DNA of 64,000 bases from an uncultured Planctomycetales bacterium (lineage in GTDB: Bacteria > Omnitrophota > Gorgyraeia > Zapsychrales > Fredricksoniimonadaceae): positions 782,290 to 846,289 of the forward strand of contig CAZNDZ010000001.1 in NCBI GenBank assembly GCA_964572155.1, given 5' to 3'. The position numbers and the translations under genes were made by a program. The notes under the pieces were generated by a model. The model was not told where the DNA came from and made no database searches. It saw only the letters and a list, made by a program, of their open reading frames with translations. Of this stretch, positions 30,028 through 57,852 are shown one piece after another (positions within the stretch are counted from its first letter, which is position 1; each line of letters begins with the position of its first letter).

Positions 30028-30843
30028 TTGCCGCGTAAAAGAAGAATTCTTTTCTCCGTTTTTGTTGTTTTGGCCATTGCGGTTCTCACCTTTGTGTTTT
30101 GGGTACGAGATCGTTATGTGGTACCTATTATAACGTATCATAATGTTTCAAATCAGCATGGTTTGTATTCTCTTAATAATGTGTCTCCGAAGTCATTTGC
30201 TTGGCAAATGAAATTTTTGAACAAGCACCGTTATAATGTGATAAGTTTTGATGATTATGTCCAAGGGATGAAGAAAGGCGTTGCTTTTGCGCGCAATACG
30301 GTGGTCATTCATTTTGATGATGGGTATGAAGATAATTATACCTATGCATACCCCATCTTAAAGCAGTACCAATTTCCAGCCAGTATTTTCTTAGTATCCG
30401 ATAGTATAGGTAAAGATAATTTTCTGAAATGGGATCAAGTTAAAGAAATGGAAAGTTCCCGTATTGAATTTGGTTCACATACTCGTCGTCATGCGTATCT
30501 TCCAGAGTTAAATATTTCGAATGCTGTGGATGAAATTGCTGGCAGTAAACAGGTGATTGAAAAAAACCTTGGTCATTCGATAAAATATTTTGTTTATCCC
30601 TCAGGCGGATATACAGATGAGGTTAAAGGCATTGTGCAAACAGCCGGATATGAAGCAGCAGGGACAACAAATCGCGGCAGGGATATGTTTAACCGAGACC
30701 TGTTTGAATTAAATCGCATTCGTGTAAAAAATAAAGAAACAGCGTTAACATTTTGGGCTAAGTTGTCGGGTTATTATAATTTATTCCGCAAATCACGTTG
30801 CGGTGAGCATTGTGGAAAGGAAAAATATGCCGTATCGTCTTGA
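30028..30843 (+). CDS. Polysaccharide deacetylase (NodB-homology domain) with an N-terminal TM anchor
   Basis: N-terminal TM. NodB motifs VVIHFDDGYEDNY and FGSHTRRH...P. Confidence 0.7.
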   Translation: MPRKRRILFSVFVVLAIAVLTFVFWVRDRYVVPIITYHNVSNQHGLYSLNNVSPKSFAWQMKFLNKHRYNVISFDDYVQGMKKGVAFARNTVVIHFDDGYEDNYTYAYPILKQYQFPASIFLVSDSIGKDNFLKWDQVKEMESSRIEFGSHTRRHAYLPELNISNAVDEIAGSKQVIEKNLGHSIKYFVYPSGGYTDEVKGIVQTAGYEAAGTTNRGRDMFNRDLFELNRIRVKNKETALTFWAKLSGYYNLFRKSRCGEHCGKEKYAVSS

Positions 30844-33800
30844 TCAAGCAGGCGCATTTGAAATCACGGATTATAACCAAGAAAAAGTTTTTGCCAATTT
30901 CTTCCCAGGTGTTGCGGGTTTATACGGGATCCCCATGTGGGCTTTTTATATTAACCGAGGGCAGGGGATCAGCTCATTTGGCATTGAATCTAAAGATAAG
31001 AGCATTCTTGAATTTCAACCCGCCAATCGCGCGTATCGTTTAACATCAATTCAAGGTTTCCGTACTTTCCTAAAAGTTGGTCATGCATCGGCTCAAAAGT
31101 TTTACGAGCCATTTGCTAATCCTGTAGCAAGTCCTTATAAGATTAAGCAACGCATGATCATGCAAAGCCATGATTTAACCGTTGAAGAAATCAATAGCAC
31201 CTTGGGGATTAAAACAACGGTCAATTATTTTACATTGCCACAAGAACCATATGCGGCTTTGGTTCGTCGTGTAACATTTGAGAATATTTCAAAGAAAGAT
31301 CTGCAAATACAATGCATTGATGGTCTGCCGGCGCTCAATCCATACGGCCTCAAAGATTGGTTGGGTAAACATATCTCACGCACCGTTGAAGCATGGGTGG
31401 CCGTGCATAATATTGCTAAAAAGGCTCCGTTTTATCAATTGAAGGTAGAAGTGGCTGATACACCTCAAGTTACCCACATTCACGAGGGGAATTTCTATTT
31501 TGCCTTTGATGCGAGCACCAAAAAATTGTTGGATCCAATTGTTGAAGCTGCGTTGGTTTTTGGGCAATCTAGTGATTTCTTGGTTCCAGAAATATTTTTG
31601 AAGTCCGATAAATTTAGCGTTCCATTAAAACAACAAACGACCAACCGTACGCCCAGCGCTTTTGTTACCCAAGCGTTTAATTTAAAGTCGGGTAAAACAC
31701 ATCAGATCACCGCATTAGCAGGGTATGCGCATGACATGGATGAATTAAATCGTGTGGTCAAGCAAGCGACCAAATCAGATTTTATCGAAAATAAGTCCAA
31801 AGAAAATCAAGCCATCATCGACGATATCAAAGGGTATTCCTTGACGCACAGTGCGGCTAATAATTTTGATCAATATTGTGGTCAAAACTTCCTAGATAAT
31901 GTGTTGCGAGGTGGTTTGCCAATATCGTTGCAAACAGCCCAAGGCCCTGTGTCGTTTAATGTGTATAGCCGTAAACACGGTGATCTAGAACGTGATTATA
32001 ATTTCTTTACGCTGGCACCTACATTTTTATCGCAAGGTAATGGTAACTTCCGTGATGTGAATCAGAATCGCCGTAATGACATCTGGTTTAACCAAGACGT
32101 GAAGGATAGTTTGGTTATTAACTTCTATAATTTGATTCAAGCAGACGGGTACAATCCTTTGGTGATCAAAGGTTTAAGTTTCACCGTGTTGGAAGATGCA
32201 CAGATCGACGCTATCATTAAAGAATTTTCCCCTCAAGGCAATTTGGCTAAGTTAAAGAGCATCTTAAAGAAAGGCTTTATGCCAGGTGACCTCTTAAAGC
32301 TCATTGATCGTGAAGTGCCGATCACTGGCAAGAGCGCAGATTTCTTAAGCCGCGTTTTAAGTGTTAGTCAAAAGCAAGAACAGGCGGATTTTGGGGAAGG
32401 GTACTGGAGTGATCATTGGACGTATAATCTAGATTTAATTGAAAGTTATTTGAGTGTTTATCCAGAGAAATTAAAAGAAATCCTTTTAGATAAGAAGGTT
32501 TTCTATTTCTATTTTAATGATGCGTACGTTTTACCGCGTGAGAAACGTCATGTGTTAACACCTTATGGTGTGCGTCAATATCATTCTTTAGCCGAGCATG
32601 ATAAAACAGTTCAAGCCACGGCCAAGGGTCATCGCCTGCGTACCAAGGGTGGCTCAGGGGATATTTATCATACAAATTTAATGGTTAAGTTATTGGCCAT
32701 GTTGGCTAATAAAGCAGCCACCTTAGATCCCAGTGGTATTGGCGTTGAAATGGAAGCCAATAAACCAAATTGGTATGATGCCTTAAACGGCTTGCCAGGG
32801 TTATTAGGTTCATCCATTAGTGAAACGTTTGAAGTAAATCGTTTGGCAAAGTTTGTTAGGAAAAATATCGACGCCTTGCGGTTAAACGATCATGAAAAAG
32901 TGACCATGATGGTTGAATTAGCGGATTTCATCGAGGGGTTGACCCACGTTTTAACCAATGAACACAATAGCCTAGAATATTGGAAGAAATCAAACAATCT
33001 CAAAGAACATTATCGCCGCAGCGTTCATTTAGGGATAGATGGGGCAGAGCGTCCATTAACGATCCTTGAGGTGAAGCATTTCTTAGATGGTGTTATTAAG
33101 AAGACATCCCAAGCCCTTAAGAATGCCCAAGATGACAAGGGTTTGTTTGCGACCTATTATTATCATGAAGTCACACAATATGAAGAATTAGATAAGAGCC
33201 ATCATGGTGATCATCATGTCAGGGCTTTGGCGTTTAAACGTCATGACTTACCATATTTCTTAGAAGGTTTTGTGCACGCATTGCGTGTTATGGATCAAGC
33301 GGATGCGTCAGCTTTGTATCAAGCCATTAAGAAAAGTGCGTTATACGATAAACCTTTAGGCATGTATCGTGTCAATGCGTCATTGTCCAAGGAAACCGAA
33401 GAGATCGGCAGAACACGTATATTCCCGTCGGGTTGGTTGGAGAATGAGTCGGTGTGGCTGCATATGGAGTATAAGTATTTATTAGAATTGTTGCGCGTTG
33501 GTTTGTATGAAGATTTCTTTAAGGATGCCAAGCAATGTTTTGTTCCATTCCTTGACCCCAAACGTTATGGGCGCAGTGTTTTAGAAAATTCTTCGTTCAT
33601 TGCCTCAAGTGCGCATGAGGATAAGAATCTTCATGGTCAAGGTTTTGTAGCCCGTTTGTCAGGTTCCACGGCGGAGTTTATTCATATTTGGTTAACGTTG
33701 TGTATTGGCAATAAACCATTTGTGTTAAATGCGGCAGGTCAGATTGAATTGCATGTAAAGCCCATTTTACCTGCATGGTTGTTTACAACGCAGGCGACGG

Positions 33801-34033
33801 AAGATTTTTCAAATGATACGTTTGCGTTTAAATTCTTAAACAAGACCATGATTGTTTATCATAATCCCAAACGTCAAAACACCTTTGGCAAGCAAGGTGT
33901 GCGCGTGCAAGAAGTTCATGTGTTGTATCATGATAAAAAAGAAGTTGTCTATAAAGGTGATGTGTTACCGTCGGCAATCGCATTGGACGTGCGTTCGCTT
34001 AAAGTGCAGCGCATGGATGTTATCTTAGGTTAA
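30827..34033 (+). CDS. Large (1068 aa) putative glycoside hydrolase/phosphorylase-like protein. Family not resolved.
   Basis: Start taken at ATG 30827 (RBS GGAAAGG), 17 nt inside the deacetylase 3' end. Long soluble protein with no signal peptide. General resemblance to multi-domain (alpha/alpha)6 glycoside phosphorylase/hydrolase architectures. Adjacent to a NodB deacetylase. The family call is weak. Confidence 0.35.
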   Translation: MPYRLDQAGAFEITDYNQEKVFANFFPGVAGLYGIPMWAFYINRGQGISSFGIESKDKSILEFQPANRAYRLTSIQGFRTFLKVGHASAQKFYEPFANPVASPYKIKQRMIMQSHDLTVEEINSTLGIKTTVNYFTLPQEPYAALVRRVTFENISKKDLQIQCIDGLPALNPYGLKDWLGKHISRTVEAWVAVHNIAKKAPFYQLKVEVADTPQVTHIHEGNFYFAFDASTKKLLDPIVEAALVFGQSSDFLVPEIFLKSDKFSVPLKQQTTNRTPSAFVTQAFNLKSGKTHQITALAGYAHDMDELNRVVKQATKSDFIENKSKENQAIIDDIKGYSLTHSAANNFDQYCGQNFLDNVLRGGLPISLQTAQGPVSFNVYSRKHGDLERDYNFFTLAPTFLSQGNGNFRDVNQNRRNDIWFNQDVKDSLVINFYNLIQADGYNPLVIKGLSFTVLEDAQIDAIIKEFSPQGNLAKLKSILKKGFMPGDLLKLIDREVPITGKSADFLSRVLSVSQKQEQADFGEGYWSDHWTYNLDLIESYLSVYPEKLKEILLDKKVFYFYFNDAYVLPREKRHVLTPYGVRQYHSLAEHDKTVQATAKGHRLRTKGGSGDIYHTNLMVKLLAMLANKAATLDPSGIGVEMEANKPNWYDALNGLPGLLGSSISETFEVNRLAKFVRKNIDALRLNDHEKVTMMVELADFIEGLTHVLTNEHNSLEYWKKSNNLKEHYRRSVHLGIDGAERPLTILEVKHFLDGVIKKTSQALKNAQDDKGLFATYYYHEVTQYEELDKSHHGDHHVRALAFKRHDLPYFLEGFVHALRVMDQADASALYQAIKKSALYDKPLGMYRVNASLSKETEEIGRTRIFPSGWLENESVWLHMEYKYLLELLRVGLYEDFFKDAKQCFVPFLDPKRYGRSVLENSSFIASSAHEDKNLHGQGFVARLSGSTAEFIHIWLTLCIGNKPFVLNAAGQIELHVKPILPAWLFTTQATEDFSNDTFAFKFLNKTMIVYHNPKRQNTFGKQGVRVQEVHVLYHDKKEVVYKGDVLPSAIALDVRSLKVQRMDVILG

Positions 34034-38453: not shown

Positions 38454-41400
38454 TTGGCTTATATAGTATTTATATTCTATACTTTCCGTGTGAAATCCCC
38501 CTATAAGAAGCTTATTGCAATTGTGGTTATTTTAACTTTTTGGGCATCGCTATTTGTCCCACAGCAAGTCCATGCCCAATTAAGCTTACCAGCACCCGGC
38601 ACCATGGTGTCGCTTAGCCCTTCATTTCATCCGCCCGTCCTCAAAGGCATTAAGATTAATCCCAATGATCCTTTAAAGTTTGATTTCATCCTAGATAAAG
38701 GTTCCATAGAGACGCGATTGATCGCGTCTCAAACAACAACTTTAATTAAATACTTTTTGGCCGCATTAACAATCCCAGAACAAGACCTTTGGGTTAACTT
38801 AAGTCCGTATGAAAAAGACCGCATTGTGCCAGATTCTTTTGGTCAAACCGAAATGGGCAGAGATTTATTAGCCCAAGATTATTTGCTCAAACAAATCACG
38901 GCATCATTGGTTTATCCCGAAGGGGATATTGGCAAAGCATTTTGGAAAAAAGTTTATGCGTCATCCTCGACAAAAGATGTCCCAATCAATGCATTTAACA
39001 AAGTTTGGATTGTGCCTAATAAGGCCGTTATTTACGAAAATACCAAAGCAGGTACGGCTTATGTTATTGAATCTTCGTTAAAAGTTTTAACCGAACAAGA
39101 TTATCTTGCCAGCACTAAGAATAGTATTAAAACGAATAATAATCAAATCGTTAAAGATGTGGTGCTCCCGCAATTAACCAAGGAAGTCAACGAAGGGGCA
39201 AATTTTGCCAAGCTTCGTCAAGTCTACAATGCGCTCATCTTGGCCACGTGGTACAAAAGAAAAATCAAAGATAGTATCTTTTCAAAAACATATGCCGACC
39301 AAAACAAGATTAACGGCATAGCGATAAGCGACCTTAAAGAAAAACAGAAAATCTATGAACGTTACTGTGAAGCTTTTAAAAAAGGCGCATATAACTACAT
39401 CAAAGAAACACCGATGCCTGACGGGACAATGGTTCCAAGGAAATATTTCTCAGGAGGGGTAGTCCTAAAATTTGGCAACAATGATTTCGCCATGGTTGAT
39501 CATATTTCGGGAGAAGTGAAGGGAGATTTTGCACAGGTTAGCGTTGCATTGAAGTGGTTAAAGAAAATATTTGGTTCAAATACAAAAGGGATGTCGCAGC
39601 TAGAAATAAAGTTGATTGGCGATAATCCATTAAAGAAACAGGCGATTGAGGCGATATTGCAACGCATCGAATTGGGGAATTTAGTTGATAAGCAACGTCT
39701 AAGAGAGCTTGTGAGTATAGACCCAGAACATATTGCCATGGTCATAGACCCAAGAAATTATTCTGAAGCGATTCCATATAGTGCCGATTTTGTAACCATG
39801 GTGATAGGTAATGGCAAGGCTTTGGCTCAAGTAAGTCTAAGTCATGTCGGGATGGATTTCTTTCAGTCGGATGAAGGCGTTTTAATATTAAAAGAATTAG
39901 GCATGGGCATAATTTGGAAGACGCAGTTTGATCAGAATAAGGCAGTGATTCCAAATGTGGTCAATTTTTATTCTGTGCAAGGCATTAATAAGATTATCAC
40001 GGAGAATGCAGAATTTTTAAAACGTTATGGATATCGCGTTCAAGGTTTTATGGGGCAAGCTGACATTGAGCGTTTCATCACGTTATTGCTTATTAGTGAT
40101 TCAGCGCCACAACATGAATCGTCGATAAGCGCATTGTTTTACGGTTATCCTCGCGAGGCTGTAGAATCGTTTATGAAGCATATACAAACCATGTACTCCT
40201 TTCGAGACGCAATAAGAAACATATTCCCAATATATTTTCATAAAATCAAAGGCATTCATCCATTTGCCAAATTTGCCATCACCAAGGAGTCGTTTTTACC
40301 AGCCATGAAAAAATTAGAGGAGCGATATCGCGGCATTGATACCGTCTCAGCTGCATTAAGATATTCAAAAGATACAGATCAAGCGCAGATGGTTAAAGGG
40401 GTTTCATTAACGATAGAAGAGGCGAAGGCTATTAAGGTTTTAAGAAATATTTTGTCTAAGAATCAAAATGATATTTTATCGATTGGCGGCACGTCTGATG
40501 TTTTCTTTAATCGCATACGTTTTGAGCTTATTTTTGGTTTATTAGGTCAACACGTCGATGTTTTTCAGCCAAGGAAAGCATATTACAAGCAGTGGCAAAG
40601 AGATTTAAAGACGAGGGATTGGCAGAAGGTAAAAGATAATGTTTCGTTATATGAGGAGCCCTTTAGAAGCAACAGTCGCATAAATCCAAAAACTAAGTCA
40701 GTTGCTGTATTGATGAGTGTTCTTTCTGATCCTGAAGTAGCGGATTGGATAAAACAACGGTTGTTACAAAATGTATTAAATGTACTTCAAGAAAATGGGG
40801 TGTTGATTGTTGGTTGGTATAAAGATCGGAAGATCAGAGATCGTGAATTCCAAGATACCAAACGCATACTAGATTGGTTTGTCGAAAGAGGGTATACCTT
40901 TACGCTTGATACAGAACATCAGATCACAAGTTCCATGCATGAGATACAAATTTATCGTGTCACAGGGCAGCGTATAGGTTTCTTTCGATACTGGGCAAAG
41001 AGGTTATTTAATCAGCCTGTTGATCAAGCGATCCCAATTAGATTAAATGAAGCCTCGACTGATGAGATTAATTTCATCCGTGAGATGTCGTCGTTAAACT
41101 TAAGAGATGGTTCAAATATTGCAGCCATAGGTTCAACTAATGGGAAAGAAACGCATCTTCATGAAAAACAAATTCGAGTTCCAGAAGTTTTTGCGTCGAT
41201 GGGGCATCATGTGGACGTTTTTCAACCAGAAACATTTGGTGCAGATAAGTGGGAAACAGCAAAAGCTGCTGCAAATAGGCCTAAATATTTCAACAATATA
41301 ACCATTCACCGAAAATCCGTTGGTTATAACGGCGTGCTTCCAAAAGATTCAGTGTCGGTTGCTTTTCTAGATGCTGTCTTATCAGATCCTTTTATCATGG

Positions 41401-43613
41401 CTACAGAAAGAAATGGGTTTGCTTTGCTAGGATCTGTTATGGAGGCGATCAAGGATAAGGGCTATTTGATGGTTGGTTGGTATAAGAATGATCCCACGGA
41501 TTCTGAGCGAAGAGACACCTATTACTTTTTAGATTTGATTAGAAATCGTGGATATCATTTACAGAAATTGCCAAATAAGATAAGTAGCGAAGCACATCAA
41601 ATAGAGGTGTACCGTGTGATCAAAGATCATGCGCAGAGTTCTTTGGTTAATGGCGTGCGTTTAGTTCAATACGCTCTTGCAACTGATGTTGCCCAACACG
41701 TCGCACGTCGTATGGCAGATGTGATTAAAGCAAATAATGAGTTGGGTCGAGAGACGCGTTTTATTACTCCGACGGGTGGGACCTATGAGGCGGTGTATCA
41801 GCAATTGATTGCGATTATTGAGCAAGAACAGATCGATTGTTCACGGTTAATCACGTTTAATATGGATGAATATATTGGCGTTGCAGATGAGCAAAGTTAT
41901 CGGCATTACATGGAGCAGAATTTATTTAGCGCCTTAGAGCGATTTGGCTGGAAGAAAGCAAATGGGCATGTGTTAAATGGTAAAACCGTTAACATAGAGG
42001 ATGAAGTAAATGCCTATGAAAAAGCCATTCGTGACGGTGGGATTGATTTAGCATTAGGTGGCATCGGCCAAGATGGCCATATCGCGTTTAATGAGCCGAT
42101 CATCCGTGTTGGAACAACTGGGGTCACCTTTGAACAAGCGCGCGATTTTAATGAGTTTGTCCTCGATGTTCCAGAAAGTCAACGCGCTGCTATTATCCAA
42201 CAAATTCATGATCAGCGTAGAAAAGCACGAGAAATTGAATCTTTAAAAAGTTATTTAGCTTCTAAAATTTTTGGTAAAGATGTGACAGGTTTAGCGGCAA
42301 GGCTGAAAGATCAACCGATAAAGATTTATACAGATTCAAAAGAAATATCAAACCTACAAACACGCCATGTGCAACTAGCCCTACAAACCATCATCGACAA
42401 TAGCCGCTATTTCCCCGATGCCAATCAAATGCCAATAGAGGCGCTTACCATTGGCATTGCCACGATCAAGATCGCCAAGGAAGTTATGATTGCGGCCACA
42501 GGTTCAAATAAGGTGGATGCGCTGATGGCTGCTCTTAAGAAAGAACCATCGACGGAGGTTGCGGCTTCGCAGTTAAGGGGTCATGAAAATGTAGCTTTCG
42601 TGGTTGATTTTAATTTGACCGAAGAAATACATGCGCGTTTGATTAAATACATGTTACATCAGGAAGAATTTGATTTAAAAGAAATCATAGCCTATGGCAA
42701 AACCTTAGGGCTAGATCAAGGGGAATTATTCAAGACCATTGAACAGTTAACAAATCAAAAAGCGTTTATTCGAGAGCCTCAAAAAGATCCACATCGATGG
42801 ACATCATTTCTTCCCATTTTTAGACGGGATGGTACTTTTACAGGTAAGGTCAAAGATTATTGGGCGACGGGTAGAGACGGGGATTGGTACAAGGCAAGTT
42901 GTGTTTTTCTCCAGAGTCAATCAGGGAAATTATTGCTTCAGATCCGTAAGGATGGAACGCTTGATATTTCCATTGGTGGTGCTGTGGATATTGGTTTTGA
43001 TGAAGAAAGCACGGCCATTAAAGAAGCACGGGAAGAATTGGCGTTAGATATTAAAAGCAAAGATTTAAATCAAATCAAAGGTTCTAGTAATGGTTCGATC
43101 ATCGAGCCTGTTGATGAATACGTTATATTTAATTTTTTTCATGTTGCTTTGACGCGGGCTAAAGAGAATTCTTGGAGAAAAAATGTGGGGCATGTGGTGA
43201 TGTCATGGGACGATTTTTTACAAGGCAAGACGCGCGTATTAAATGATGAAGTTTCGGGCATTGTTGAAGTTCAAGCCAAAGAGCTTATTGACTACTACTT
43301 CAAGGATCCAAAAAACCAGATAAAGTTTGCACAGGGTTTAAAAGCTGCATTGGAAGATCAAGATGTGCGTTCCTATCTTAAATCCATCGATCCTGCACAA
43401 ATAGGGCAAATGGCAGAGCGTCTGACGCCAGGTGGTATCGACCTAAATGCTTCTAAGATGAATGTTGAGACGCATAATGCTGGTGAGGCCATGAAGTTGG
43501 GCGTTGACCCAGTGCTTTTGAAGCAACTTCAAGAGGCTGGAGGGTTTATGCCGGTTATCCTGAAAATCCAGCCTTTGGTGGATGTGAAGGCCTTTTTGGG
43601 TGTGAGCGGTTAA
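38454..43613 (+). CDS. Giant exported multidomain protein, paralog 2 of 3 (1719 aa). Conserved N-domain, two ~170-aa internal tandem repeats, a NagB/6-phosphogluconolactonase-like module, a Nudix-like module and the conserved C-terminal GGIDLNA domain.
   Basis: Signal peptide ...LIAIVVILTFWASLFVPQQVHA. The true start may be the GTG at 38490, giving MKSPYKK..., because the ATG at 38454 sits inside a promoter-like TTGGCT-17-TATACT. N-domain shared with 16116 and 55642. Tandem repeats each contain HVDVFQP...VLSDP...GWYK...YRV. ITPTGGTYEAVYQQL...LALGGIGQDGHIAFNEP is NagB/Pgl-like. GGAVDIGFDEESTAIKEAREELAL resembles a Nudix box. C terminus TPGGIDLNASKMNVETH...LKIQPLVDVKAFLG. Confidence 0.8.
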   Translation: MAYIVFIFYTFRVKSPYKKLIAIVVILTFWASLFVPQQVHAQLSLPAPGTMVSLSPSFHPPVLKGIKINPNDPLKFDFILDKGSIETRLIASQTTTLIKYFLAALTIPEQDLWVNLSPYEKDRIVPDSFGQTEMGRDLLAQDYLLKQITASLVYPEGDIGKAFWKKVYASSSTKDVPINAFNKVWIVPNKAVIYENTKAGTAYVIESSLKVLTEQDYLASTKNSIKTNNNQIVKDVVLPQLTKEVNEGANFAKLRQVYNALILATWYKRKIKDSIFSKTYADQNKINGIAISDLKEKQKIYERYCEAFKKGAYNYIKETPMPDGTMVPRKYFSGGVVLKFGNNDFAMVDHISGEVKGDFAQVSVALKWLKKIFGSNTKGMSQLEIKLIGDNPLKKQAIEAILQRIELGNLVDKQRLRELVSIDPEHIAMVIDPRNYSEAIPYSADFVTMVIGNGKALAQVSLSHVGMDFFQSDEGVLILKELGMGIIWKTQFDQNKAVIPNVVNFYSVQGINKIITENAEFLKRYGYRVQGFMGQADIERFITLLLISDSAPQHESSISALFYGYPREAVESFMKHIQTMYSFRDAIRNIFPIYFHKIKGIHPFAKFAITKESFLPAMKKLEERYRGIDTVSAALRYSKDTDQAQMVKGVSLTIEEAKAIKVLRNILSKNQNDILSIGGTSDVFFNRIRFELIFGLLGQHVDVFQPRKAYYKQWQRDLKTRDWQKVKDNVSLYEEPFRSNSRINPKTKSVAVLMSVLSDPEVADWIKQRLLQNVLNVLQENGVLIVGWYKDRKIRDREFQDTKRILDWFVERGYTFTLDTEHQITSSMHEIQIYRVTGQRIGFFRYWAKRLFNQPVDQAIPIRLNEASTDEINFIREMSSLNLRDGSNIAAIGSTNGKETHLHEKQIRVPEVFASMGHHVDVFQPETFGADKWETAKAAANRPKYFNNITIHRKSVGYNGVLPKDSVSVAFLDAVLSDPFIMATERNGFALLGSVMEAIKDKGYLMVGWYKNDPTDSERRDTYYFLDLIRNRGYHLQKLPNKISSEAHQIEVYRVIKDHAQSSLVNGVRLVQYALATDVAQHVARRMADVIKANNELGRETRFITPTGGTYEAVYQQLIAIIEQEQIDCSRLITFNMDEYIGVADEQSYRHYMEQNLFSALERFGWKKANGHVLNGKTVNIEDEVNAYEKAIRDGGIDLALGGIGQDGHIAFNEPIIRVGTTGVTFEQARDFNEFVLDVPESQRAAIIQQIHDQRRKAREIESLKSYLASKIFGKDVTGLAARLKDQPIKIYTDSKEISNLQTRHVQLALQTIIDNSRYFPDANQMPIEALTIGIATIKIAKEVMIAATGSNKVDALMAALKKEPSTEVAASQLRGHENVAFVVDFNLTEEIHARLIKYMLHQEEFDLKEIIAYGKTLGLDQGELFKTIEQLTNQKAFIREPQKDPHRWTSFLPIFRRDGTFTGKVKDYWATGRDGDWYKASCVFLQSQSGKLLLQIRKDGTLDISIGGAVDIGFDEESTAIKEAREELALDIKSKDLNQIKGSSNGSIIEPVDEYVIFNFFHVALTRAKENSWRKNVGHVVMSWDDFLQGKTRVLNDEVSGIVEVQAKELIDYYFKDPKNQIKFAQGLKAALEDQDVRSYLKSIDPAQIGQMAERLTPGGIDLNASKMNVETHNAGEAMKLGVDPVLLKQLQEAGGFMPVILKIQPLVDVKAFLGVSG

Positions 43614-43665: not shown

Positions 43666-44685
43666 ATGAATAAATACTATAATATTATAAATAAATTTAA
43701 GTCCAAAAGGCTTCTCGTTATTGGGGATCTGGTGTTGGACCAGTATATCAAGGGGTCAGTTTCCCGCATTTCTCCGGAAGCGCCGGTGCCCATTGTGGTT
43801 CAACAAGAGTCTTTTTTCACCCCAGGGGGCGCGGCTAATGTGGCCAATAACCTAAGTAGTTTAGGCGCGGATGTGACCTTGATTGGTAAGGTTGGGGATG
43901 ATATTGAAGGCGCTATTTTAAAACGGGAATTAAGCCATCGTAAGATTCATACCAACGGCATTTTCATGGATGAAACCATCCAGACCATATTTAAGACCCG
44001 CATCATCGCCCAACATCAACAAATTGTACGTTTGGATCGTGAGACGGTTGGTGTCACCAATGATGAGCTTTTTAAAACCAAGATTGTGCCATTTTTAAAG
44101 AAGAATTTTACCAAGTATGATGCGGTGATTATTTCTGATTATGGCAAAGGCATGATTGATATGGGGCTCATGGCAATGGTTCATGAGTTGGCCTTGCAAC
44201 ATAAAATTCCCGTCGTGGTTGATCCTAAATTTGAAGATTTGCGTGCTTATGGTGTTGTGACCTGCATCACACCCAATAAAAAAGAAGCAGAAACAGCCTT
44301 GAAGGCGATCACAGAAGCGGCACGCAAAACATTTGGCGTTGTATCCACACGGTTGGATAAAAAAGAAGAGATTGAGAAAAACGGCCAAGGGTTATTGGCT
44401 TACTTAGGCATTGAATCATTGCTCATCACCTTAGGTGAGCATGGCATGTATTTATTTGAACATGATCGCAAACCTTTTCCCATTGCAACCCGCGCCCAGG
44501 AAGTTTTTGATGTTAGTGGTGCAGGGGACACGGTGATTTCTGTTTTTTCTCTAGCACTAGCAGCCAAGGCTGATCGTCGCAATGCAGCCGATATTGCTAA
44601 TTATGCCGCCGGTGTGGTTGTTGGTAAAATGGGGGCAGTTGCCATTGAACCTGATGAGTTAAAGCAGGCGGTTAAAGCATCATGA
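43666..44685 (+). CDS. hldE: D-glycero-beta-D-manno-heptose-7-phosphate kinase (RfaE domain I, PfkB family). Stand-alone kinase domain.
   Basis: LVIGDLVLDQYIKGSVSRISPEAPVPIV is typical of RfaE domain I. PfkB C-terminal GAGD motif (VSGAGDTV). 339 aa, so no adenylyltransferase domain. Confidence 0.7.
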   Translation: MNKYYNIINKFKSKRLLVIGDLVLDQYIKGSVSRISPEAPVPIVVQQESFFTPGGAANVANNLSSLGADVTLIGKVGDDIEGAILKRELSHRKIHTNGIFMDETIQTIFKTRIIAQHQQIVRLDRETVGVTNDELFKTKIVPFLKKNFTKYDAVIISDYGKGMIDMGLMAMVHELALQHKIPVVVDPKFEDLRAYGVVTCITPNKKEAETALKAITEAARKTFGVVSTRLDKKEEIEKNGQGLLAYLGIESLLITLGEHGMYLFEHDRKPFPIATRAQEVFDVSGAGDTVISVFSLALAAKADRRNAADIANYAAGVVVGKMGAVAIEPDELKQAVKAS

Positions 44686-45419
44686 GAACCATTGGCGTCA
44701 TCCCTGCACGCATGGCCTCAACGCGTTTTCCAGGGAAAGTTTTAGCCAAGATAGGCGATCAAACCATGATCGAACGGGTTTGGCGCAAGGCAAAAGCGGC
44801 GACAAAATTAGATGATGTCTTAATAGCGTGTGATCACGACGATGTTTTAAAGACAGCCAAGAGTTTTGGCGCACGGGCGGTGATGACAGATCCAAATCAT
44901 CCCTCGGGTTCTGATCGCATTGCACAGGCCATTTCAAATGAGGTTTGTGAGATTGTCATCAATATTCAAGGTGATGAACCTTTTATTGATACAGGTGTGA
45001 TTGATGCTTTAGCAGGGGCATTGCAAGCAGATGCGAAAATTAGCATGAGCACGGTGATCAAGCCCATTGCCTCCGATGAAGAATTTCTTAACCCTAATGT
45101 GGTTAAATGCGTCATTGATGAACAAGGCTTTGCATTGTACTTTTCACGCGCACCTATTCCCTATAAACGAGATGCGCAATCAGCGACGATCAAACGCTAC
45201 AAACATTTAGGTATTTACGCGTATCGTAAAGAATTTTTATTGCAGTATAAAGATTGGCCTAAGTCGAGTTTAGAAAATTGTGAGCAACTTGAACAATTAC
45301 GGGTTTTAGAAAAGGGCTATCGCATTAAGACCGTTGAAACACATCAAGAGTCGATTGCGATTGATACACCCGCAGATTTAGAAAAGGCGCTTCTATGGTT
45401 ACAAAAACAGTCAAATTAA
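44682..45419 (+). CDS. kdsB: 3-deoxy-manno-octulosonate cytidylyltransferase (CMP-Kdo synthetase)
   Basis: IGVIPARMASTRFPGKVLAKIGDQTMIERV. NIQGDEPFI motif. Confidence 0.85.
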   Translation: MRTIGVIPARMASTRFPGKVLAKIGDQTMIERVWRKAKAATKLDDVLIACDHDDVLKTAKSFGARAVMTDPNHPSGSDRIAQAISNEVCEIVINIQGDEPFIDTGVIDALAGALQADAKISMSTVIKPIASDEEFLNPNVVKCVIDEQGFALYFSRAPIPYKRDAQSATIKRYKHLGIYAYRKEFLLQYKDWPKSSLENCEQLEQLRVLEKGYRIKTVETHQESIAIDTPADLEKALLWLQKQSN

Positions 45420-46222
45420 ATAACAATGTTCATTTTGGTGGCAAGCATCCGTTTGTTTTGATCGCAGGCCCCTGTGTTATTGAATCCCCAGACAGTGCCT
45501 TTAAAATTGCACAAACATTAAAGGCCATCACCAAAAAGTTAGGGGTTGCCTTTGTGTTTAAAGCCAGCTACGACAAGGCGAATCGCACGTCCATTCATTC
45601 ATTTCGCGGTCCAGGCATCGTCGAAGGTTTAAAAGTATTGGCGAAGATCAAAGAAAAGTTAGATGTGCCGGTGGTGAGTGATGTTCATTCCGTCGAGGAA
45701 GCAACGATTGCCGGAGATTTCTTAGATATCATTCAGATCCCCGCGTTCTTATGCCGTCAAACAGATTTGATTGTTGCTGCTGCCAAGACCGGTAAGATTG
45801 TTAATGTTAAGAAGGGTCAATTCTTGGCACCGAGCGATGTGAAGGGTATTATCAAGAAAATGGAAGAAGCGGGTAATAAGAAATTATTATTAACAGAGCG
45901 TGGGTCGAGCTTTGGTTACAATACCTTGATCACTGATTTTAAAGGCATGTGCGCCATGCGAGAATTAGGTTATCCTGTTGTGTTTGATGCAACCCATAGC
46001 GTGCAAAAGCCAGGTGGGTTAGGTCATGCCACTGCAGGGGAGAGTCAATATATCCCTGCATTATCCAGAGCCGCGGTTGCTGTTGGGGTGGATGGTTTAT
46101 TTATTGAAACGCATCCAAATCCAGCAAAGGCTTTGTCCGACGGGCCTAATATGTTGCCCTTAAATAAAATGGAAAGCTTACTCAAAGATTTAATCGCCAT
46201 TAATAAGGTGGTCTTAAAATAA
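45395..46222 (+). CDS. kdsA: 3-deoxy-8-phosphooctulonate synthase
   Basis: FVLIAGPCVIES. DFLDIIQIPAFLCRQTDL. DATHSVQKPGG motifs. Confidence 0.85.
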   Translation: MVTKTVKLNNNVHFGGKHPFVLIAGPCVIESPDSAFKIAQTLKAITKKLGVAFVFKASYDKANRTSIHSFRGPGIVEGLKVLAKIKEKLDVPVVSDVHSVEEATIAGDFLDIIQIPAFLCRQTDLIVAAAKTGKIVNVKKGQFLAPSDVKGIIKKMEEAGNKKLLLTERGSSFGYNTLITDFKGMCAMRELGYPVVFDATHSVQKPGGLGHATAGESQYIPALSRAAVAVGVDGLFIETHPNPAKALSDGPNMLPLNKMESLLKDLIAINKVVLK

Positions 46223-46223
46223 C

Positions 46224-47180
46224 ATGTTAAAACGCGCAAAAGAAGTCATCACGATTGAAGCCAATGCCATCAAAGCGCTTTTAAAAAAGCTCGATGGTAA
46301 TTTTGCAACGGCGGTAGATTTGATCGCCAAGTGTTCAGGGCGTGTGGTTGTTTGTGGCATGGGCAAGACGGGCATCATCGGCCGCAAGATTGCTGCCACC
46401 TTATCATCGACCGGAACGCCGAGCGTCTATTTGCATAGTGCTGAGGCTGTTCATGGTGATTTAGGGCAAGTGACATCTAAAGATATTATCATCGTCATTT
46501 CACAAAGCGGCGAAACCGAAGAAACAGTGCGTTTGTTGCCTGCGGTTAAAAAGATTGGTGTTAAGACTATTGCCATGACAGGCAATTTAAAATCATCTTT
46601 GGCGAAACATAGCGACGTGGTGCTAAATACATCTGTTGCTAAAGAAGGTTGTCCATTAGGGTTAGCGCCCATGGCATCGACGACAGCAACCTTGGCCCTA
46701 GGCGATGCCTTGGCTGCATGCTTGATTGATCGTCGAGGATTTAAAAAAGAAGATTTTGCCTTTTATCACCCAGGCGGTAGTTTGGGGCGACGTTTATTAT
46801 TGAAGGTTGAAGATATCATGCGCACAGGTGCAGGTTTAGCCTTGGTTAAGCCGACGATGAAAGTCAAAGACGTCTTATTGGCCATCACCAAAGCTCGCAG
46901 CGGTTGTGCGTGCGTGGTTGATGCCAAGGGTCACTTGGTCGGGTTTTTTACAGACGGTGATTTGCGTCGACATTTGAATGAAGGCGCTTTGGTTTTATCG
47001 CAACCTGTTGAAGGGATCATGACCAAAAAGCCAACATCCATCACCAAAGATAAATTAGCTGCGGCAGCGTTTGATATTTTAAAAACCCGTCGTATTGATG
47101 AGTTGCCTGTTGTTGATAAAACCAATAAGGTGGTCGGATTGGTGGATGTTCAAGATTTGCTTAAAGCAGGTTTGGTATGA
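46224..47180 (+). CDS. kdsD: Arabinose-5-phosphate isomerase (SIS plus tandem CBS domains)
   Basis: SIS domain (VVVCGMGKTGIIGRKIAATLSSTGTPS) plus two CBS domains. Canonical KpsF/GutQ architecture. Confidence 0.85.
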   Translation: MLKRAKEVITIEANAIKALLKKLDGNFATAVDLIAKCSGRVVVCGMGKTGIIGRKIAATLSSTGTPSVYLHSAEAVHGDLGQVTSKDIIIVISQSGETEETVRLLPAVKKIGVKTIAMTGNLKSSLAKHSDVVLNTSVAKEGCPLGLAPMASTTATLALGDALAACLIDRRGFKKEDFAFYHPGGSLGRRLLLKVEDIMRTGAGLALVKPTMKVKDVLLAITKARSGCACVVDAKGHLVGFFTDGDLRRHLNEGALVLSQPVEGIMTKKPTSITKDKLAAAAFDILKTRRIDELPVVDKTNKVVGLVDVQDLLKAGLV

Positions 47181-47689
47181 ACACCGCGGCTCTAAAGAAT
47201 ATAAAAGTCTTGGTCATGGATGTCGATGGTGTATTAACCGATGGTAAGATCATTGTTGATAGCAATGGTGTTGAGTCAAAAAATTTTGATGTTCAAGATG
47301 GCTTAGGGATTGTCTTGTTGCATCAATGTGGGATTAAGACAGCGATCATTTCAGCACGTCAAAGTGAAGTGGTTAAGTTCCGTGCTGGTGATTTAAAGAT
47401 CGATCAAGTTTTTGTAGGCGTGTATCCAAAGATGAGTGCCTATGAAGAAATGCTTAAGAATTTAAATGTCAGCGATAGTGAAGTATGTTTTATCGGTGAT
47501 GATGTTGTTGATTTAAAAGTTTTACGCCGTGTTGGTTTTGCTGTGGCGGTTGATAATGCCGTGTTTGAAGTTAAAAAAGCAGCACATTATGTCACAAAGA
47601 AGCGTGGCGGTAACGGGGCAGTGCGGGAAGTTGTGGAGTTAATCTTAAAGGCCAAGGGCCAATGGACAAAAGAGCTATATGAACATTAA
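47177..47689 (+). CDS. kdsC: Kdo-8-phosphate phosphatase (HAD family)
   Basis: VLVMDVDGVLTDGKI. CFIGDDVVDLKVL HAD motifs. 170 aa. Confidence 0.8.
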   Translation: MNTAALKNIKVLVMDVDGVLTDGKIIVDSNGVESKNFDVQDGLGIVLLHQCGIKTAIISARQSEVVKFRAGDLKIDQVFVGVYPKMSAYEEMLKNLNVSDSEVCFIGDDVVDLKVLRRVGFAVAVDNAVFEVKKAAHYVTKKRGGNGAVREVVELILKAKGQWTKELYEH

Positions 47690-48524
47690 AACATGCATGT
47701 TGATAATGTTGTTGCTTTTAAATGTGTCGTTGGTTGTTGCTGATGATAGTGGTCCAACGCAGCAATTAGAAGGCTTTAATTTGAATGGTTATACGACGGG
47801 TGGGAAAAAGTCTTGGGAAATTAATGGCGATAAAGCAGACATCACGGATGAAAGCATTAAGGTCACCAATGTCAATGCCAATATGTATGATAAACAGAAT
47901 GCAAATTTAAAATCAAAGAGTGGGGTCATCAATAAGGTTAACGGCGATGTGCATTTGCAAGATGATGTGGTCTTAACATCTGACCGTGGCACCACCATGA
48001 CAACCGATAGTTTGGATTGGAGCCGAAACAATGATTTGGTTAAGACCGATGACAAAGTGACCATTCAAGATGAGAAGGGTACATTGACGGGAACCGGGTT
48101 AACTGGTCATCCAAACTTAAAGAAGGCGCAATTAAATGAAGATGTGACAGCAACAATCAAAGCAGGGCAATCTACGGCTTTATCTGGTTCTTTGGTGCAA
48201 ATCACCTGTGATGGGCCAATGGAAGTTGATCAGCAAAAAATGAATGCGGTGTTTAATAAGAATGTCGTTGCGCGTGAATTACAAACAGGGCGTCAGCTGC
48301 AAGCAGATAAGATGACCATTTGGTTTGATGACAAAAACAAGAAGTTAAAGAAGGTTGTTTGTTCTGGCCATGTGATCGCCACCCAAGGCAACAATTCAAC
48401 ATATGCCGACGAGATGATTTATACCGGCGATGATGAGAAGTTGATCATGACAGGGAGGCCTAAATTGATTTTTGATACAGGCACTGAAGGCAGTAATAAT
48501 TTGTTCGATAAGATAGGTCAATAA
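47679..48524 (+). CDS. LptC/LptA (OstA)-family periplasmic LPS transport protein. A single gene where lptC and lptA are usually separate.
   Basis: N-terminal hydrophobic segment (MNIKTCMLIMLLLLNVSLVVA), then a beta-jellyroll-like sequence. Sits between kdsC and lptB, where lptC-lptA normally lie. Confidence 0.5.
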   Translation: MNIKTCMLIMLLLLNVSLVVADDSGPTQQLEGFNLNGYTTGGKKSWEINGDKADITDESIKVTNVNANMYDKQNANLKSKSGVINKVNGDVHLQDDVVLTSDRGTTMTTDSLDWSRNNDLVKTDDKVTIQDEKGTLTGTGLTGHPNLKKAQLNEDVTATIKAGQSTALSGSLVQITCDGPMEVDQQKMNAVFNKNVVARELQTGRQLQADKMTIWFDDKNKKLKKVVCSGHVIATQGNNSTYADEMIYTGDDEKLIMTGRPKLIFDTGTEGSNNLFDKIGQ

Positions 48525-48526
48525 TC

Positions 48527-49249
48527 ATGCGTTTATTGGAAGCAAAGAATCTGGTGAAAATTTATGGCGGCCGTAAGGTTGTCGACGGGTTAACCATATC
48601 TGTTGGCCGTTCTGAAATTGTGGGGTTGTTAGGCCCCAATGGCGCAGGGAAGACCACGGCGTTTTACATGGTTGTTGGCATCGTTGCGCCCGATGAAGGA
48701 CAAGTGATTTTTGACCAAGAGGACATTTCCAAAAAACCCATCCATGAGCGCAGTCGTCTAGGGATGGGCTATTTGGCGCAAGAAAGTTCGATCTTTCGCA
48801 AGTTAACTGTTGAGGAAAATATTTTAGCGGTTTTAGAGACCTTGCCCATTAGTCCGCAAGAACGCAAGCGTCGCCTTGAATCGCTTTTAGAGGAACTCAA
48901 TATTTCACATTTGGCAAAATCAAAAGCATTTACGTTGTCCGGCGGAGAACGCCGTCGTTTGGAAATCACCCGTGCGCTGGTGACCAACCCATCGTTTTTA
49001 TTGTTGGACGAACCTTTTTCCGGCATTGATCCGATTGTGGTTGCTGAAGCGCAAGAAATCATCAAAGATTTAAAGAAGCGTGGTTTAGGGATTTTGTTAA
49101 CCGATCACAATGTGCGTGAAACCTTGTCGATCACCGACCGTGCGTATCTGGTTGCTGACGGCAGGATATTGATTTCAGGTACTGCCCAAGATCTCATCAA
49201 TGATCAAAAAGCCCGCAAGATTTACCTAGGCGAAAAATTTAGCATGTAA
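48527..49249 (+). CDS. lptB: LPS export ABC transporter ATP-binding protein
   Basis: Walker A GPNGAGKTT. Signature LSGGERRRLEI. Walker B LLLDEPFSGIDP. 240 aa. Downstream of the lptC/A-like gene. Confidence 0.85.
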   Translation: MRLLEAKNLVKIYGGRKVVDGLTISVGRSEIVGLLGPNGAGKTTAFYMVVGIVAPDEGQVIFDQEDISKKPIHERSRLGMGYLAQESSIFRKLTVEENILAVLETLPISPQERKRRLESLLEELNISHLAKSKAFTLSGGERRRLEITRALVTNPSFLLLDEPFSGIDPIVVAEAQEIIKDLKKRGLGILLTDHNVRETLSITDRAYLVADGRILISGTAQDLINDQKARKIYLGEKFSM

Positions 49250-55603: not shown

Positions 55604-55633
55604 TTGATTTTTACCCCATTTATAGTGCATACT
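55604..55633 (+). promoter_or_regulatory. Putative sigma70-type promoter for giant paralog 3
   Basis: TTGATT, 18-nt spacer, CATACT. Ends 8 nt upstream of ATG 55642. The ATACTTT element also occurs just upstream of paralog 2 (38478-38485). Confidence 0.35.
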
Positions 55634-55641: not shown

Positions 55642-57852
55642 ATGCTACATATTTTCCTGACATTTACATTTATTTTGAGCCTTTGTATTGGCCCTAGAGC
55701 TGTTATGGCTGAGGGGTTAGTTGTGCCGTTGATGCCAAAGCCAGGTGAAATGGTGGGGTTGAGTTCTGCGTTTACGCCGGCGTTGATGCAGGGGATTACG
55801 GTTAATAAGGACAATGCACTGCAATTTGATTTTATCATGAATCGTGGTGAAGATAATTTGACGGATGCGGATAAGACACTTGAATACAATAAGCTCATCA
55901 AATATTTCCTCGCGTCGCTGACCATTGCGGACAAAGATCAATGGGTCAACCTTTCGCCTTACGAAAAAGAACGCATCATCGAAGATGGTTTTGGTCGGAC
56001 AGAAATGGGGCGTGATTTGCTCGCGCAAGATTATTTGCTTAAACAAATTACTTCATCTTTGATGTACCCTGAAAATGGTTTGGGTAAAACATTTTGGGAT
56101 AAGATTTATGAACGCGTGGGCAAAGAATTTGGTTCCATCAATATCCCTGTTAATACGTTCAATAAAGTTTGGATCGTCCCTAGTGATGTCACCGTTTATG
56201 AAAGCGGCACGAGCGCGGTGATTTTAAAAAGCCATTTGAAGGTCATGTTAGAAGAAGACTATTTGGCTACACAAAAACATCAGGTCATTCAAAATAAAAC
56301 AGCTGTCCAAGAAATCATCCGCGATGTCATCTTGCCTGAATTAGAGAAAGAAGTAAACACAGGCAAAAATTTTGCACCGTTGCGTCAAGTGGTCAGCGCC
56401 ATGATTTTAGCGACGTGGTATAAGAAGTCCTTAAAAGAATCATTGCTTGGCAAAGTCTACATGGACCAAGCAAAAGTCCAAGGCATCAACACTGACCCCA
56501 AAAATAACACCATCATCTATGATCAATATTTAGAAGCTTTCAAAAAGGGTGTCTACAACTTCATTAAAGAAGAAGTCAATCCTAAGACGCAGCAATTGAT
56601 TCCTAGAAAATATTTTGCGGGTGGGATTCAAGGCATCCAAGAAATGAATGTGGTTCAAAACATTGATAGAGCTATGGTGGATCCTACAGATATAGGCGTT
56701 GATTTTTTGATTCCAGATATTGATATTGTTAGATCTGAAGTTAAGCCAGCAAGGTTTGAATTGTCTCCAGGTCCGCTTCCTGTAATGAGCATTCGGCAAA
56801 GAAGTTGGAATGCGTTAGATTCACAAGTAATAGCTGATAAGGTTTTTAAGTATTTATCAACCAAATATAAGGGTTACGCTTTACTAGGAAAGGTTTTTCA
56901 AGTCAATGTTAGCGCAACTGACATAGTTGAAGGCAGAAGACTTGAAGTAGCGGCAATAGGCTTAGATGCTAAAGAACAGGATCCTATTTCATTATTAAAA
57001 GAACAATTTATGGATGGCAGGATGCTGCCTTTAAAGATTCGTTTTACGGATAAAGGTATTAAGGTTTCTCTGGGGGAAATACTTGAATCATTTTTAGAGC
57101 CTAATGAGATTAATGATTATCTAGTTAATACAAATATTGTTTTAAATAAAGTGCAGCAGCAACTGAATCAGATGTGGGATCAAGAAGCGACGGTTAATAA
57201 AAATTTGACGACGCCTGTGCAAGATTTAAAAACTGATATTAAAATATTTCAAAACAATCAAGATGGATCAATTCGATTAGATGGAATTAAGAATGAGGTT
57301 GAGGTAAATATTCTTGGTGAGAAATACAAAGTGATCAAGCAGTTAAAAAGCGGTGGATTTGAATGGGTTTTGATATTGCCAAATTTGCAGTTTTTTTACT
57401 TTAAAGTGCGCTTAACAAGGCAGTATCCTGTTGAGTTCTTAACCACAGATCTTGAAGGGCACTATATTGTTAAAGATGGAAAGAAAATCCCAATTGAATT
57501 TGTTCTGTATTCTAAAGAAGATAGGAATCAATTAATTATTAGGATGGGTAATAAGTTGTTATTTTCTGATATTACATTAGGTGATACAAAGACGGATAGA
57601 GCCATGCTAAATAATATCAATCAAGTTGTTGTTGATAGGCAAGGTGGGATTGATTTGAATGCGGAGCATTTTGATATGTTGATTAAGCGGGATGAGAAGG
57701 GTGTGGTTTTGCCTTTTGCGTTGCAGGATTTGGAGAAGTTGCAAAGTATTCAAGGTTTTACGCCGCGCATTTTGGAGATTAAACCGGCGGTTAATGTGCC
57801 CATCTTAAGTGAGATTCAAGAGCGGTTGAAAATGGCTCAATCGGCTTCTTAA
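55642..57852 (+). CDS. Exported protein, paralog 3 of 3 (736 aa), with the same conserved N-domain and C-terminal GGIDLNA domain
   Basis: Signal peptide MLHIFLTFTFILSLCIGPRAVMA. N-domain motifs LIKYFLASLT, WVNLSPYEKERI, GRDLLAQDYLLKQITSSL, FNKVWIVP, LRQVVSAMILATWYK, AFKKGVYNFIKE, PRKYFAGG. C terminus DRQGGIDLNAEHFDM...LEIKPAVNVPIL. Confidence 0.8.
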   Translation: MLHIFLTFTFILSLCIGPRAVMAEGLVVPLMPKPGEMVGLSSAFTPALMQGITVNKDNALQFDFIMNRGEDNLTDADKTLEYNKLIKYFLASLTIADKDQWVNLSPYEKERIIEDGFGRTEMGRDLLAQDYLLKQITSSLMYPENGLGKTFWDKIYERVGKEFGSINIPVNTFNKVWIVPSDVTVYESGTSAVILKSHLKVMLEEDYLATQKHQVIQNKTAVQEIIRDVILPELEKEVNTGKNFAPLRQVVSAMILATWYKKSLKESLLGKVYMDQAKVQGINTDPKNNTIIYDQYLEAFKKGVYNFIKEEVNPKTQQLIPRKYFAGGIQGIQEMNVVQNIDRAMVDPTDIGVDFLIPDIDIVRSEVKPARFELSPGPLPVMSIRQRSWNALDSQVIADKVFKYLSTKYKGYALLGKVFQVNVSATDIVEGRRLEVAAIGLDAKEQDPISLLKEQFMDGRMLPLKIRFTDKGIKVSLGEILESFLEPNEINDYLVNTNIVLNKVQQQLNQMWDQEATVNKNLTTPVQDLKTDIKIFQNNQDGSIRLDGIKNEVEVNILGEKYKVIKQLKSGGFEWVLILPNLQFFYFKVRLTRQYPVEFLTTDLEGHYIVKDGKKIPIEFVLYSKEDRNQLIIRMGNKLLFSDITLGDTKTDRAMLNNINQVVVDRQGGIDLNAEHFDMLIKRDEKGVVLPFALQDLEKLQSIQGFTPRILEIKPAVNVPILSEIQERLKMAQSAS

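Follow-up and report, generated by a model that had tools for sequence, protein, structure and literature searches.

Where does a protein act when enzyme modules of the cytoplasmic kind are placed behind a secretion signal? The question is raised by a gene in a 64,000-nucleotide stretch of contig CAZNDZ010000001.1 (assembly GCA_964572155.1) from an uncultured bacterium with a small genome, placed in the Omnitrophota; this whole stretch is called the window below. The coding sequence (CDS) occupies 38490..43613 on the plus strand, stop codon included, and specifies 1,707 amino acids (aa) from a GTG codon. A public protein, P0121, has exactly this sequence and forms a singleton cluster at 90% identity. 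The answer favored here, given about an even chance, is that the product is an exported member of a cassette family, in which two constant ends enclose a variable cargo, and that this cargo acts outside the producer's cytoplasm.

The protein begins with what is predicted to be a Sec-type signal peptide (aa 1–29, 38490..38576, +), recognized by direct reading, by hydrophobicity, and by a layout conserved family-wide. The N-terminus runs from MKSPYKK through LIAIVVILTFWASLFV to PQQVHA, with predicted cleavage after VHA and a mature end at Q30. Judged by the rule of a basic n-region, a hydrophobic core of 10–16 residues, and small residues at positions −3 and −1, the segment has basic residues K2, K6, and K7, a 16-residue core from L8 to V23, and V-H-A before Q30. 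The core is the only hydrophobic 19-mer of the protein, which contains three cysteines; a lipoprotein reading was rejected, as the lipobox cysteine is absent. The n/h/AxA layout is kept in 64 of 68 family members, where the mature chain usually starts AQAQ(D/E)F(R)-LPAPG, and the signal peptide proposed in an earlier, sequence-only reading of this DNA (the first-pass annotation) appears canonical by these features. No transmembrane (TM)-like segment follows it in the 1,707-aa protein. Since the same holds for 55 of 64 family members, the topology call for this family seems much cleaner than that for the giant proteins of Omnitrophota.

The family has a uniform layout of signal peptide, N-domain of ~300 aa, variable cargo, and C-domain of ~60 aa. 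Here, the N-terminal family domain spans aa 30–335 (38577..39494, +; LPAPGxMV … WVNLSPYE … FNKVWIVP … PRKYFSGG) and the C-terminal family domain spans aa 1645–1705 (43422..43604, +; GGIDLN … GFMPVILKIQPLVDVKAFLG). Signal peptide, N-domain, and a single C-domain lie in one open reading frame (ORF), with hidden Markov model (HMM) matches of E 3e-170 for the N-domain and E 1.5e-25 for the C-domain. A paralog of 1,130 aa at 16116..19508 (+) has the same signal peptide, N-domain, and C-domain around an unrelated orphan middle. Its identity to the 1,707-aa protein is 64% over ~300 N-terminal residues and 45% over ~60 C-terminal residues, which bears out the conserved termini recognized in the first-pass annotation. 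That account of one protein with one paralog was too narrow. A third member, of 736 aa, lies at 55642..57852 (+), with a signal-peptide-like N-terminus, an N-domain (E 7e-150), a C-domain (E 3e-13), and a middle without Pfam match. At least 583 family loci were found in species-representative genomes, one genome per species being scanned.

These loci carry the labels Omnitrophota or Omnitrophica or, in third-party annotation (TPA) assemblies, "uncultured Planctomycetales". An N-domain search retrieved 1,285 proteins at E ≤ 0.001; those with a named source come almost all from metagenome-assembled genomes (MAGs) of Omnitrophica/Omnitrophota, and the top matches are 50–64% identical. Many genomes are multi-copy, and one MAG holds eight of the top 80 loci. 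ORFs and cargo were surveyed in these top 80 of the at least 583 loci, a C-domain profile search having given only fragments of 58–140 aa. Defining a complete member by a single C-domain, GGIDL…PGFxPVIINIQPMxDLRxFLG, near the C-terminus yields 57 complete proteins, the shortest of 784 aa and the longest of 3,165 aa; ORFs truncated by a contig end run beyond 3,700 aa. HMMs place both end domains in the same ORF in 65 cases, with at most one C-domain match per ORF. The few ORFs with a C-domain only are all in family loci, and several immediately follow an ORF with the N-domain, as split genes would. Such pairs were seen in L031, L042, L049, L055, and L079, separated by frameshifts or in-frame stops; they are either pseudogenes or MAG assembly errors.

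The ends are 50–64% conserved while the middles are unrelated between members, and the conserved termini, by sequence comparison, define an Omnitrophota-specific, multi-copy, unnamed family. Neither end domain has a sequence relative in Pfam, NCBIfam, or the PDB. A confident AlphaFold model of the N-domain from a 102-sequence alignment is mixed alpha/beta (predicted local distance difference test (pLDDT) 82.8, predicted template modeling score (pTM) 0.72), and Foldseek matched it to no known fold, with best E values of 0.16 against the PDB and 0.07 against BFVD.

Between these ends, the cargo of the 1,707-aa protein includes a NagB-like domain. It is interrupted by an insertion: part 1 covers aa 1053–1205 (41646..42104, +) with the PTGGT loop, D1126, D1195, H1197, and E1202; the insertion of about 86 aa covers aa 1206–1289 (42105..42356, +); and part 2 covers aa 1290–1390 (42357..42659, +) with R1292, R1306, and K1341. 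The first-pass annotation had assigned a NagB/Pgl-like module to ~41740–42140. The assignment holds, and the extent is corrected to 41646–42659 with the insert included. The domain matches PF01182 at E 2.8e-14 (54 bits against a gathering score of 27), TIGR00502 in two stretches at E 2.4e-52 (177.9 bits, below the equivalog cut-off of 236.9), and PDB entry 3hn6 at E 2.4e-36, with NagB chains in the PDB matching at E 2e-36 to 1e-24. Identity to known enzymes is ~35–40%.

Conservation of the active site in this module is complete. The Escherichia coli NagB residues D72, D141, H143, E148, R172, and K208 and the PTGGT loop correspond to D1126, D1195, H1197, E1202, R1306, K1341, and P1094–T1098, respectively, and all are kept; this residue alignment agrees with the TIGR00502 and PDB matches. 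Because every catalytic and phosphate-binding residue checked is retained, the module looks catalytically intact rather than a mere scaffold. The allosteric residues S151, S152, K160, and T161 are not kept and align to T, G, V, and Q. The insert sits between E148 and R158 of the E. coli numbering, in precisely the stretch that makes up the allosteric site and the beginning of the lid in that enzyme, and it has no homolog in the 80 family loci.

NagB is followed by a conserved helical segment (aa 1386–1435, 42645..42794, +) and a Nudix-fold domain (~aa 1436–1600, 42795..43289, +), both shared with the family member in locus L058. That relative carries a 32%-identical copy of the two together (E 8e-42), and its Nudix profile match is E 2.4e-6. 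In the 1,707-aa protein, the PF00293 score is 17.4 bits when the full length is scanned and 21.8–22.0 bits for the segment alone, against a gathering score of 21.1. A profile built from the two sequences reaches NudB (2o1c) at E 1.6e-4 and DR0079 at E 1.9e-3. The variant Nudix box (aa 1497–1519, nucleotides (nt) 42978–43046) departs from the consensus GX5EX7REUXEEXGU and reads G-x5-F-x7-K-E-A-R-E-E-L-A-L. The glutamates E1512, E1515, and E1516 of REUxEE are kept here and in the 32%-identical relative; the first Glu is replaced by Phe (Met in the relative), the Arg by Lys, and the final Gly by Ala. The segment described earlier as Nudix-like can therefore keep its fold assignment, which the profile matches support, and its three glutamates; the first Glu and the Arg of the box are lost. 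On this evidence, the module appears to be a real but divergent Nudix domain.

Two tandem repeats precede NagB, repeat 1 at aa 631–824 (40380..40961, +; motif I SIGGTSD, beta-2 end VDVFQP) and repeat 2 at aa 846–1043 (41025..41618, +; AIGSTNG, VDVFQP). The tandem duplication seen in the first-pass annotation is real (29% identity, E 1e-25 in a self-comparison and 7e-20 by phmmer), with units of ~195 aa instead of ~170 aa. The unit also turns up, once per protein, in a few other long proteins, mostly ones with the N-domain (P0122, P0123, P0124, P0126, and P0130). The two repeats themselves have no Pfam match; 4 of 11 members of the repeat-domain family match Methyltransf_11 (best 9.7e-6), relatives match Methyltransf_11/12/25 at 1e-5 to 1e-6, and the best PDB match of the repeat-domain profile is the S-adenosylmethionine (SAM) methyltransferase 1vlm (E 0.012). 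The family pattern VVSVGPG … V.VYEP … VDVVxMMSVLSD … GYLIVGWY fits a class-I Rossmann methyltransferase. The repeats are accordingly best described as a rare, degenerate class-I methyltransferase-like domain, as far as profiles and motifs can tell. SAM binding is doubtful because both copies lack the GxGxG of motif I, having SIGGTSD and AIGSTNG there, and carry Gln (VDVFQP) instead of an acidic residue where beta-2 ends. An AlphaFold model of the two repeats made without an alignment had a pLDDT of 37 and was not used.

The remaining cargo is an orphan region at aa 336–630 (39495..40379, +) without significant Pfam match. A search of 1.84 billion representative sequences found only two relatives of it, P0125 (426 aa) and P0133 (3,328 aa), both weak. 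For the middle region, aa 336–1055, a word-index search gave no orthologs and an exhaustive search gave 12 weak partial matches only. An orphan domain at ~aa 385–564 (window 39640–40180) bears the motif LFYGYPREAV and a sub-threshold match to DUF3793 (E 0.011).

Pfam scans of 43 + 17 family members place this cargo in a wider pattern, each cargo type occurring in one or two members. The enzymes include ELFV (Glu/Leu/Phe/Val) and alanine dehydrogenases, a Ser/Thr kinase, a Kdo/WaaP-type kinase, and a PRK/uridine kinase, and further cargo comprises GNAT, histidine phosphatase, GDSL lipase, methyltransferases, HATPase_c, and TPR. HMM scores of cargo enzymes in relatives reach 1e-46, 9e-32, and 1e-36. 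Two members carry SNF2-related and Helicase_C domains behind the signal peptide and N-domain, one member has PPDK_N, PEP-utilizers, and HEAT, and another has multiple WD40 propellers (alignment A7). Machines that depend on DNA and ATP represent an extreme case of "cytoplasmic" cargo. Cytoplasm-type enzymes stand behind the same signal peptide in relatives, so the paradox is systematic and not an accident of one gene. The two paralogs of the window, 16116..19508 and 55642..57852, have no recognizable domain in the middle.

In the favored reading, the cleavable signal peptide would carry the chain across the inner membrane. The constant N- and C-domains would then mark the protein for the envelope, for a further secretion step, or for delivery, by analogy with the two-partner secretion (TPS) domain and the C-terminal domain (CTD) of type IX secretion system (T9SS) cargo. 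The passenger, in which a NagB-type glucosamine-6-phosphate deaminase/isomerase bearing the insert and a variant Nudix hydrolase follow an orphan domain and the two degenerate methyltransferase-like repeats, would work outside the producer's cytoplasm. It would act on sugar phosphates and nucleoside-diphosphate compounds belonging to a host or prey cell, either within that cell or where the two cells touch.

Several points weigh against this reading. Substrates and cofactors of NagB, Nudix, and methyltransferase enzymes are not expected in the periplasm. A comparison of neighbors found no secretion system, chaperone, or receptor gene conserved beside the family genes. The role given to the N- and C-domains is pure inference by analogy, and the N-domain model resembles no known fold of the PDB or BFVD. 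The signal-peptide call rests on rules and not on a trained predictor. The SAM motif of the repeats is degenerate and the Nudix box incomplete, and parts of the cargo may be inactive.

One alternative is that the protein is an effector injected or translocated into a host or prey cell, in whose cytoplasm its NagB, Nudix, and methyltransferase-like modules would reprogram the metabolism of amino sugars and nucleotides. As a rule, family cargo is cofactor-dependent and of the cytoplasmic type, and it is hard to see a use for its SNF2 helicases, kinases, and dehydrogenases anywhere but in a cytoplasm; this family-wide pattern makes the effector idea more attractive. The apparently intact catalytic residues of NagB point the same way, as does the expansion and hypervariability of the family, which is like that of polymorphic effector families; in addition, Omnitrophota have been proposed as predators or parasites (PMC10066038). 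A Sec signal peptide alone, however, reaches the periplasm only. The neighbor comparison tied no translocation machinery to the family, the protein showed no targeting motif specific to eukaryotes or archaea, and no host is known for the genome. The label "effector-like" of the first-pass annotation is thus plausible, while translocation into another cell is a possibility on the unlikely side; extracellular action on partner-derived metabolites or a structural coat role fits the data equally well. An extended proposal holds that the N-domain, with its new fold, and the C-domain GGIDL…FLG are what an undescribed pathway of export or cell-to-cell delivery recognizes; this pathway would take whole cytoplasm-type enzymes (NagB, Nudix, dehydrogenases, kinases, and SNF2 helicases) from the nanobacteria into or onto partner cells, and the family, co-regulated by its shared leaderless-type promoter, would be the phylum's main effector arsenal. 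It is put forward tentatively and considered unlikely.

A coat role would treat the enzyme folds as captured, diversifiable filler between anchoring ends, in a structural or variable surface layer where catalysis is irrelevant. It suits middles that are orphan and hypervariable, the two window paralogs devoid of recognizable domains, repeats that lack a proper GxGxG, and an incomplete Nudix box, and the giants of "Velamenicoccus" have been proposed as coat-forming (PMC10066038). Against it, NagB keeps all six catalytic and binding residues at only ~35–40% identity to known enzymes, the Nudix glutamates persist in two diverged homologs, and the strong HMM scores of cargo enzymes in relatives argue for selection on function. 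This explanation is regarded as highly doubtful. Nor does it seem probable that the protein stays inside, its hydrophobic stretch being an uncleaved membrane tether or simply ignored, and serves amino-sugar and nucleotide metabolism as a multi-enzyme in the cytoplasm or on the inner face of the membrane. The chemistry of the enzymes is indeed cytoplasmic, the gene adjoins hldE and kds genes for lipopolysaccharide (LPS) sugars, which might be related, and the authors of a giant-protein preprint doubt some extracellular predictions (10.1101/2023.11.21.568195). Yet the positive-inside rule and a conserved AxA just before a conserved mature N-terminus point to cleavage and export, no other TM segment is able to flip the topology, and family genes elsewhere sit in unrelated neighborhoods, so the adjacency to LPS genes is probably incidental. 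This reading, too, is regarded as highly doubtful.

The ORF reported at 38454..43613 on the plus strand is present in the sequence. The codon at 38454 is TTG, however, and not the ATG that had been given as its start. A TTG start would place AYIVFIFYTF before the basic n-region, which is atypical. The alternative GTG at 38490, offered earlier as the possible real start, is the better one: it agrees with the public gene call, the family signal-peptide layout, and a conserved promoter-like element that ends 4–9 nt before the start codon of family genes. The translation start is taken to be GTG 38490.

The promoter-like element lies at 38454..38483 (+), with a −35-like TTGGCT at 38454–38459 and a −10-like TATACT at 38478–38483; its end is followed by 6 nt and then GTG 38490. 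It had been described as TTGGCT-17-TATACT; the element is where it was placed, and its spacer counts 18 nt. A plain scan for the promoter consensus performs at chance (11 sites against 13.7 ± 3.8 in shuffles), and the promoter claim is made because the element is conserved across genomes. Upstream of family genes in many genomes, it reads cTTGtttt or (A/T)TGGCA, ~17–18 nt, TAtAGTG-CATACTTT, and 4–9 nt to the start (alignment A8), and the −10-like core is at its expected place in 33 of 64 family genes, compared with 3% expected. The element, summarized as cTTGtttt or TGGCA, ~17–18 nt, and then TAtAGTGCATACTTT, was seen within the window at 38454–38483, ~55605–55637, and ~16085–16110. It was also seen in loci L002, L008, L020, L021, L025, L028, L029, L034, L037, L043, L051, L055, L062, and L073, among others. 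A Shine–Dalgarno-like motif precedes none of the three window paralogs, compared with about half of the other window genes, and only 12 of 63 family starts. The shared element suggests a common regulon and leaderless mRNAs. On this view, the gene would be transcribed from a promoter of its own, of the family type, and its mRNA, read from GTG 38490, would have no leader or almost none. At the other end, a terminator-like hairpin and T-run (GCCTTTGGTGGATGTGAAGGC CTTTTTGGGT) at 43571–43600 (+) fall within the last 40 nt of the CDS, whose stop codon is 43611–43613.

Upstream of the gene lie purK, purE, and ppc, all on the same strand, and directly downstream is an LPS precursor and export cluster (43666..49249, +) of the hldE kinase domain, kdsB, kdsA, kdsD, kdsC, lptC, and lptB. 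Because these genes are present, the organism is, by its gene content, a diderm with LPS. The only recurrent "neighbors" of family genes are antisense shadow ORFs inside the N-domain region, which are almost certainly not genes; examples opposite the N-domain occur in L068 (9674–10879, −), L002 (1344–3047, −), and ~30 other loci. Two other large ORFs of the window, 30803..34033 (+, 1,076 aa) and 19503..21971 (−, 822 aa), were considered as further paralogs and rejected, being unrelated to the family. The latter is the only long minus-strand gene in this part of the DNA, and fragments of it look hydrophobic. Rfam and tRNA scans of the 64-kb window were empty.

The closest parallels are giant proteins of the same phylum. 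Omnitrophota giants with NUDIX, methyltransferase, PPDK, and sugar-phosphate modules have been predicted to be exported and have been tied to predation (10.1101/2023.11.21.568195; 10.64898/2026.06.07.730766). For "Archaeovorin", West-Roberts and colleagues predicted sugar-phosphate enzymes outside the cell and doubted the TM-based topology (10.1101/2023.11.21.568195), and "multi-enzyme metabolic cluster" giants give a similar picture (10.64898/2026.06.07.730766). The cassette protein shares with these giants its phylum, predicted export, and a divergent mosaic of cytoplasm-type modules with mostly orphan sequence between them. The module repertoire is also alike: the giants have NUDIX, methyltransferases, PPDK, HEAT, TPR, HATPase, HAD, and sugar-phosphate enzymes, and the cassette family has methyltransferase-like, NagB, and Nudix modules here and PPDK_N, HEAT, TPR, and HATPase_c in relatives. 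The Archaeovorin type is recognized by a very large size, over 10–30 kaa (thousand aa), and many TM helices. Whereas the giants measure >10–147 kaa, the protein described here is 1.7 kaa, 10–100 times smaller, and has no TM segment after the signal peptide. It has conserved N- and C-domains, and the family genes are scattered and not beside type II secretion system (T2SS) or pilus loci. The N/C cassette is absent from the descriptions in both preprints.

Comparison with the source enzymes separates what is kept from what is altered. From NagB (E. coli 1cd5/1dea, Borrelia 3hn6, and Vibrio 4r7t), the module retains the fold, the sequence family, and the catalytic and phosphate-binding residues; unlike those enzymes, it is set in a 1,707-aa signal-peptide protein, has the insert of about 86 aa, has lost K160/T161, and falls below the TIGR00502 cut-off. 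The Nudix domain resembles the NudB, DR0079, and YfcD type in its fold by profile, its LDxSxGG(x)V lead-in, and its E-x2-EE glutamates, and differs in the replaced first Glu, Arg, and final Gly of the box and in a Pfam score at threshold. The repeat-domain family follows class-I methyltransferases (Methyltransf_11/12/25 and 1vlm) in strand order and in the motif-IV/V region (VDVVxMMSVLSD … GYLIVGWY), whereas the two copies here have no Pfam match of their own, SIGGTSD/AIGSTNG for GxGxG, and Gln for the acidic residue of beta-2.

TpsA exoproteins (FHA, CdiA, and ShlA) and T9SS cargo offer an analogy only, that of a signal peptide and a conserved terminal "address" domain with a variable passenger. 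In contrast to TpsA, the N-domain is mixed alpha/beta and not a beta-helix, with no NPNL motifs, no PDB match, and no adjacent TpsB/Omp85 gene. In contrast to T9SS cargo, neither the C-terminal 70 aa nor the whole protein has a T9SS-CTD match in Pfam or NCBIfam. The cassette family also differs from both in being conserved at both ends at once. Readings as a TPS domain, a T9SS-CTD, or an autotransporter were rejected, there being no profile or fold match and the C-domain being short.

Cytoplasm-type modules in exported giant Omnitrophota proteins, sugar-phosphate and Nudix modules among them, are already known from the preprints. What is new is the cassette family, with its N-domain of unmatched fold and its C-terminal GGIDL…FLG domain, its size, its multi-copy nature, and its promoter, together with the cargo of the 1,707-aa protein: tandem methyltransferase-like domains, a variant Nudix, and a NagB that carries an insert. 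The Omnitrophota, nanobacteria that are widespread and uncultured, are suspected to live as predators or parasites. Earlier work on giant proteins left the extracellular location of enzyme modules undecided because TM predictions were ambiguous. A mid-sized family with one cleavable signal peptide, no TM helix, two conserved ends, and a shared promoter makes the question of location experimentally tractable, and searches with the end domains can list the cargo repertoire of a whole genome. If the ends do prove to be a delivery signal, the family would represent a new class of secretion substrate.

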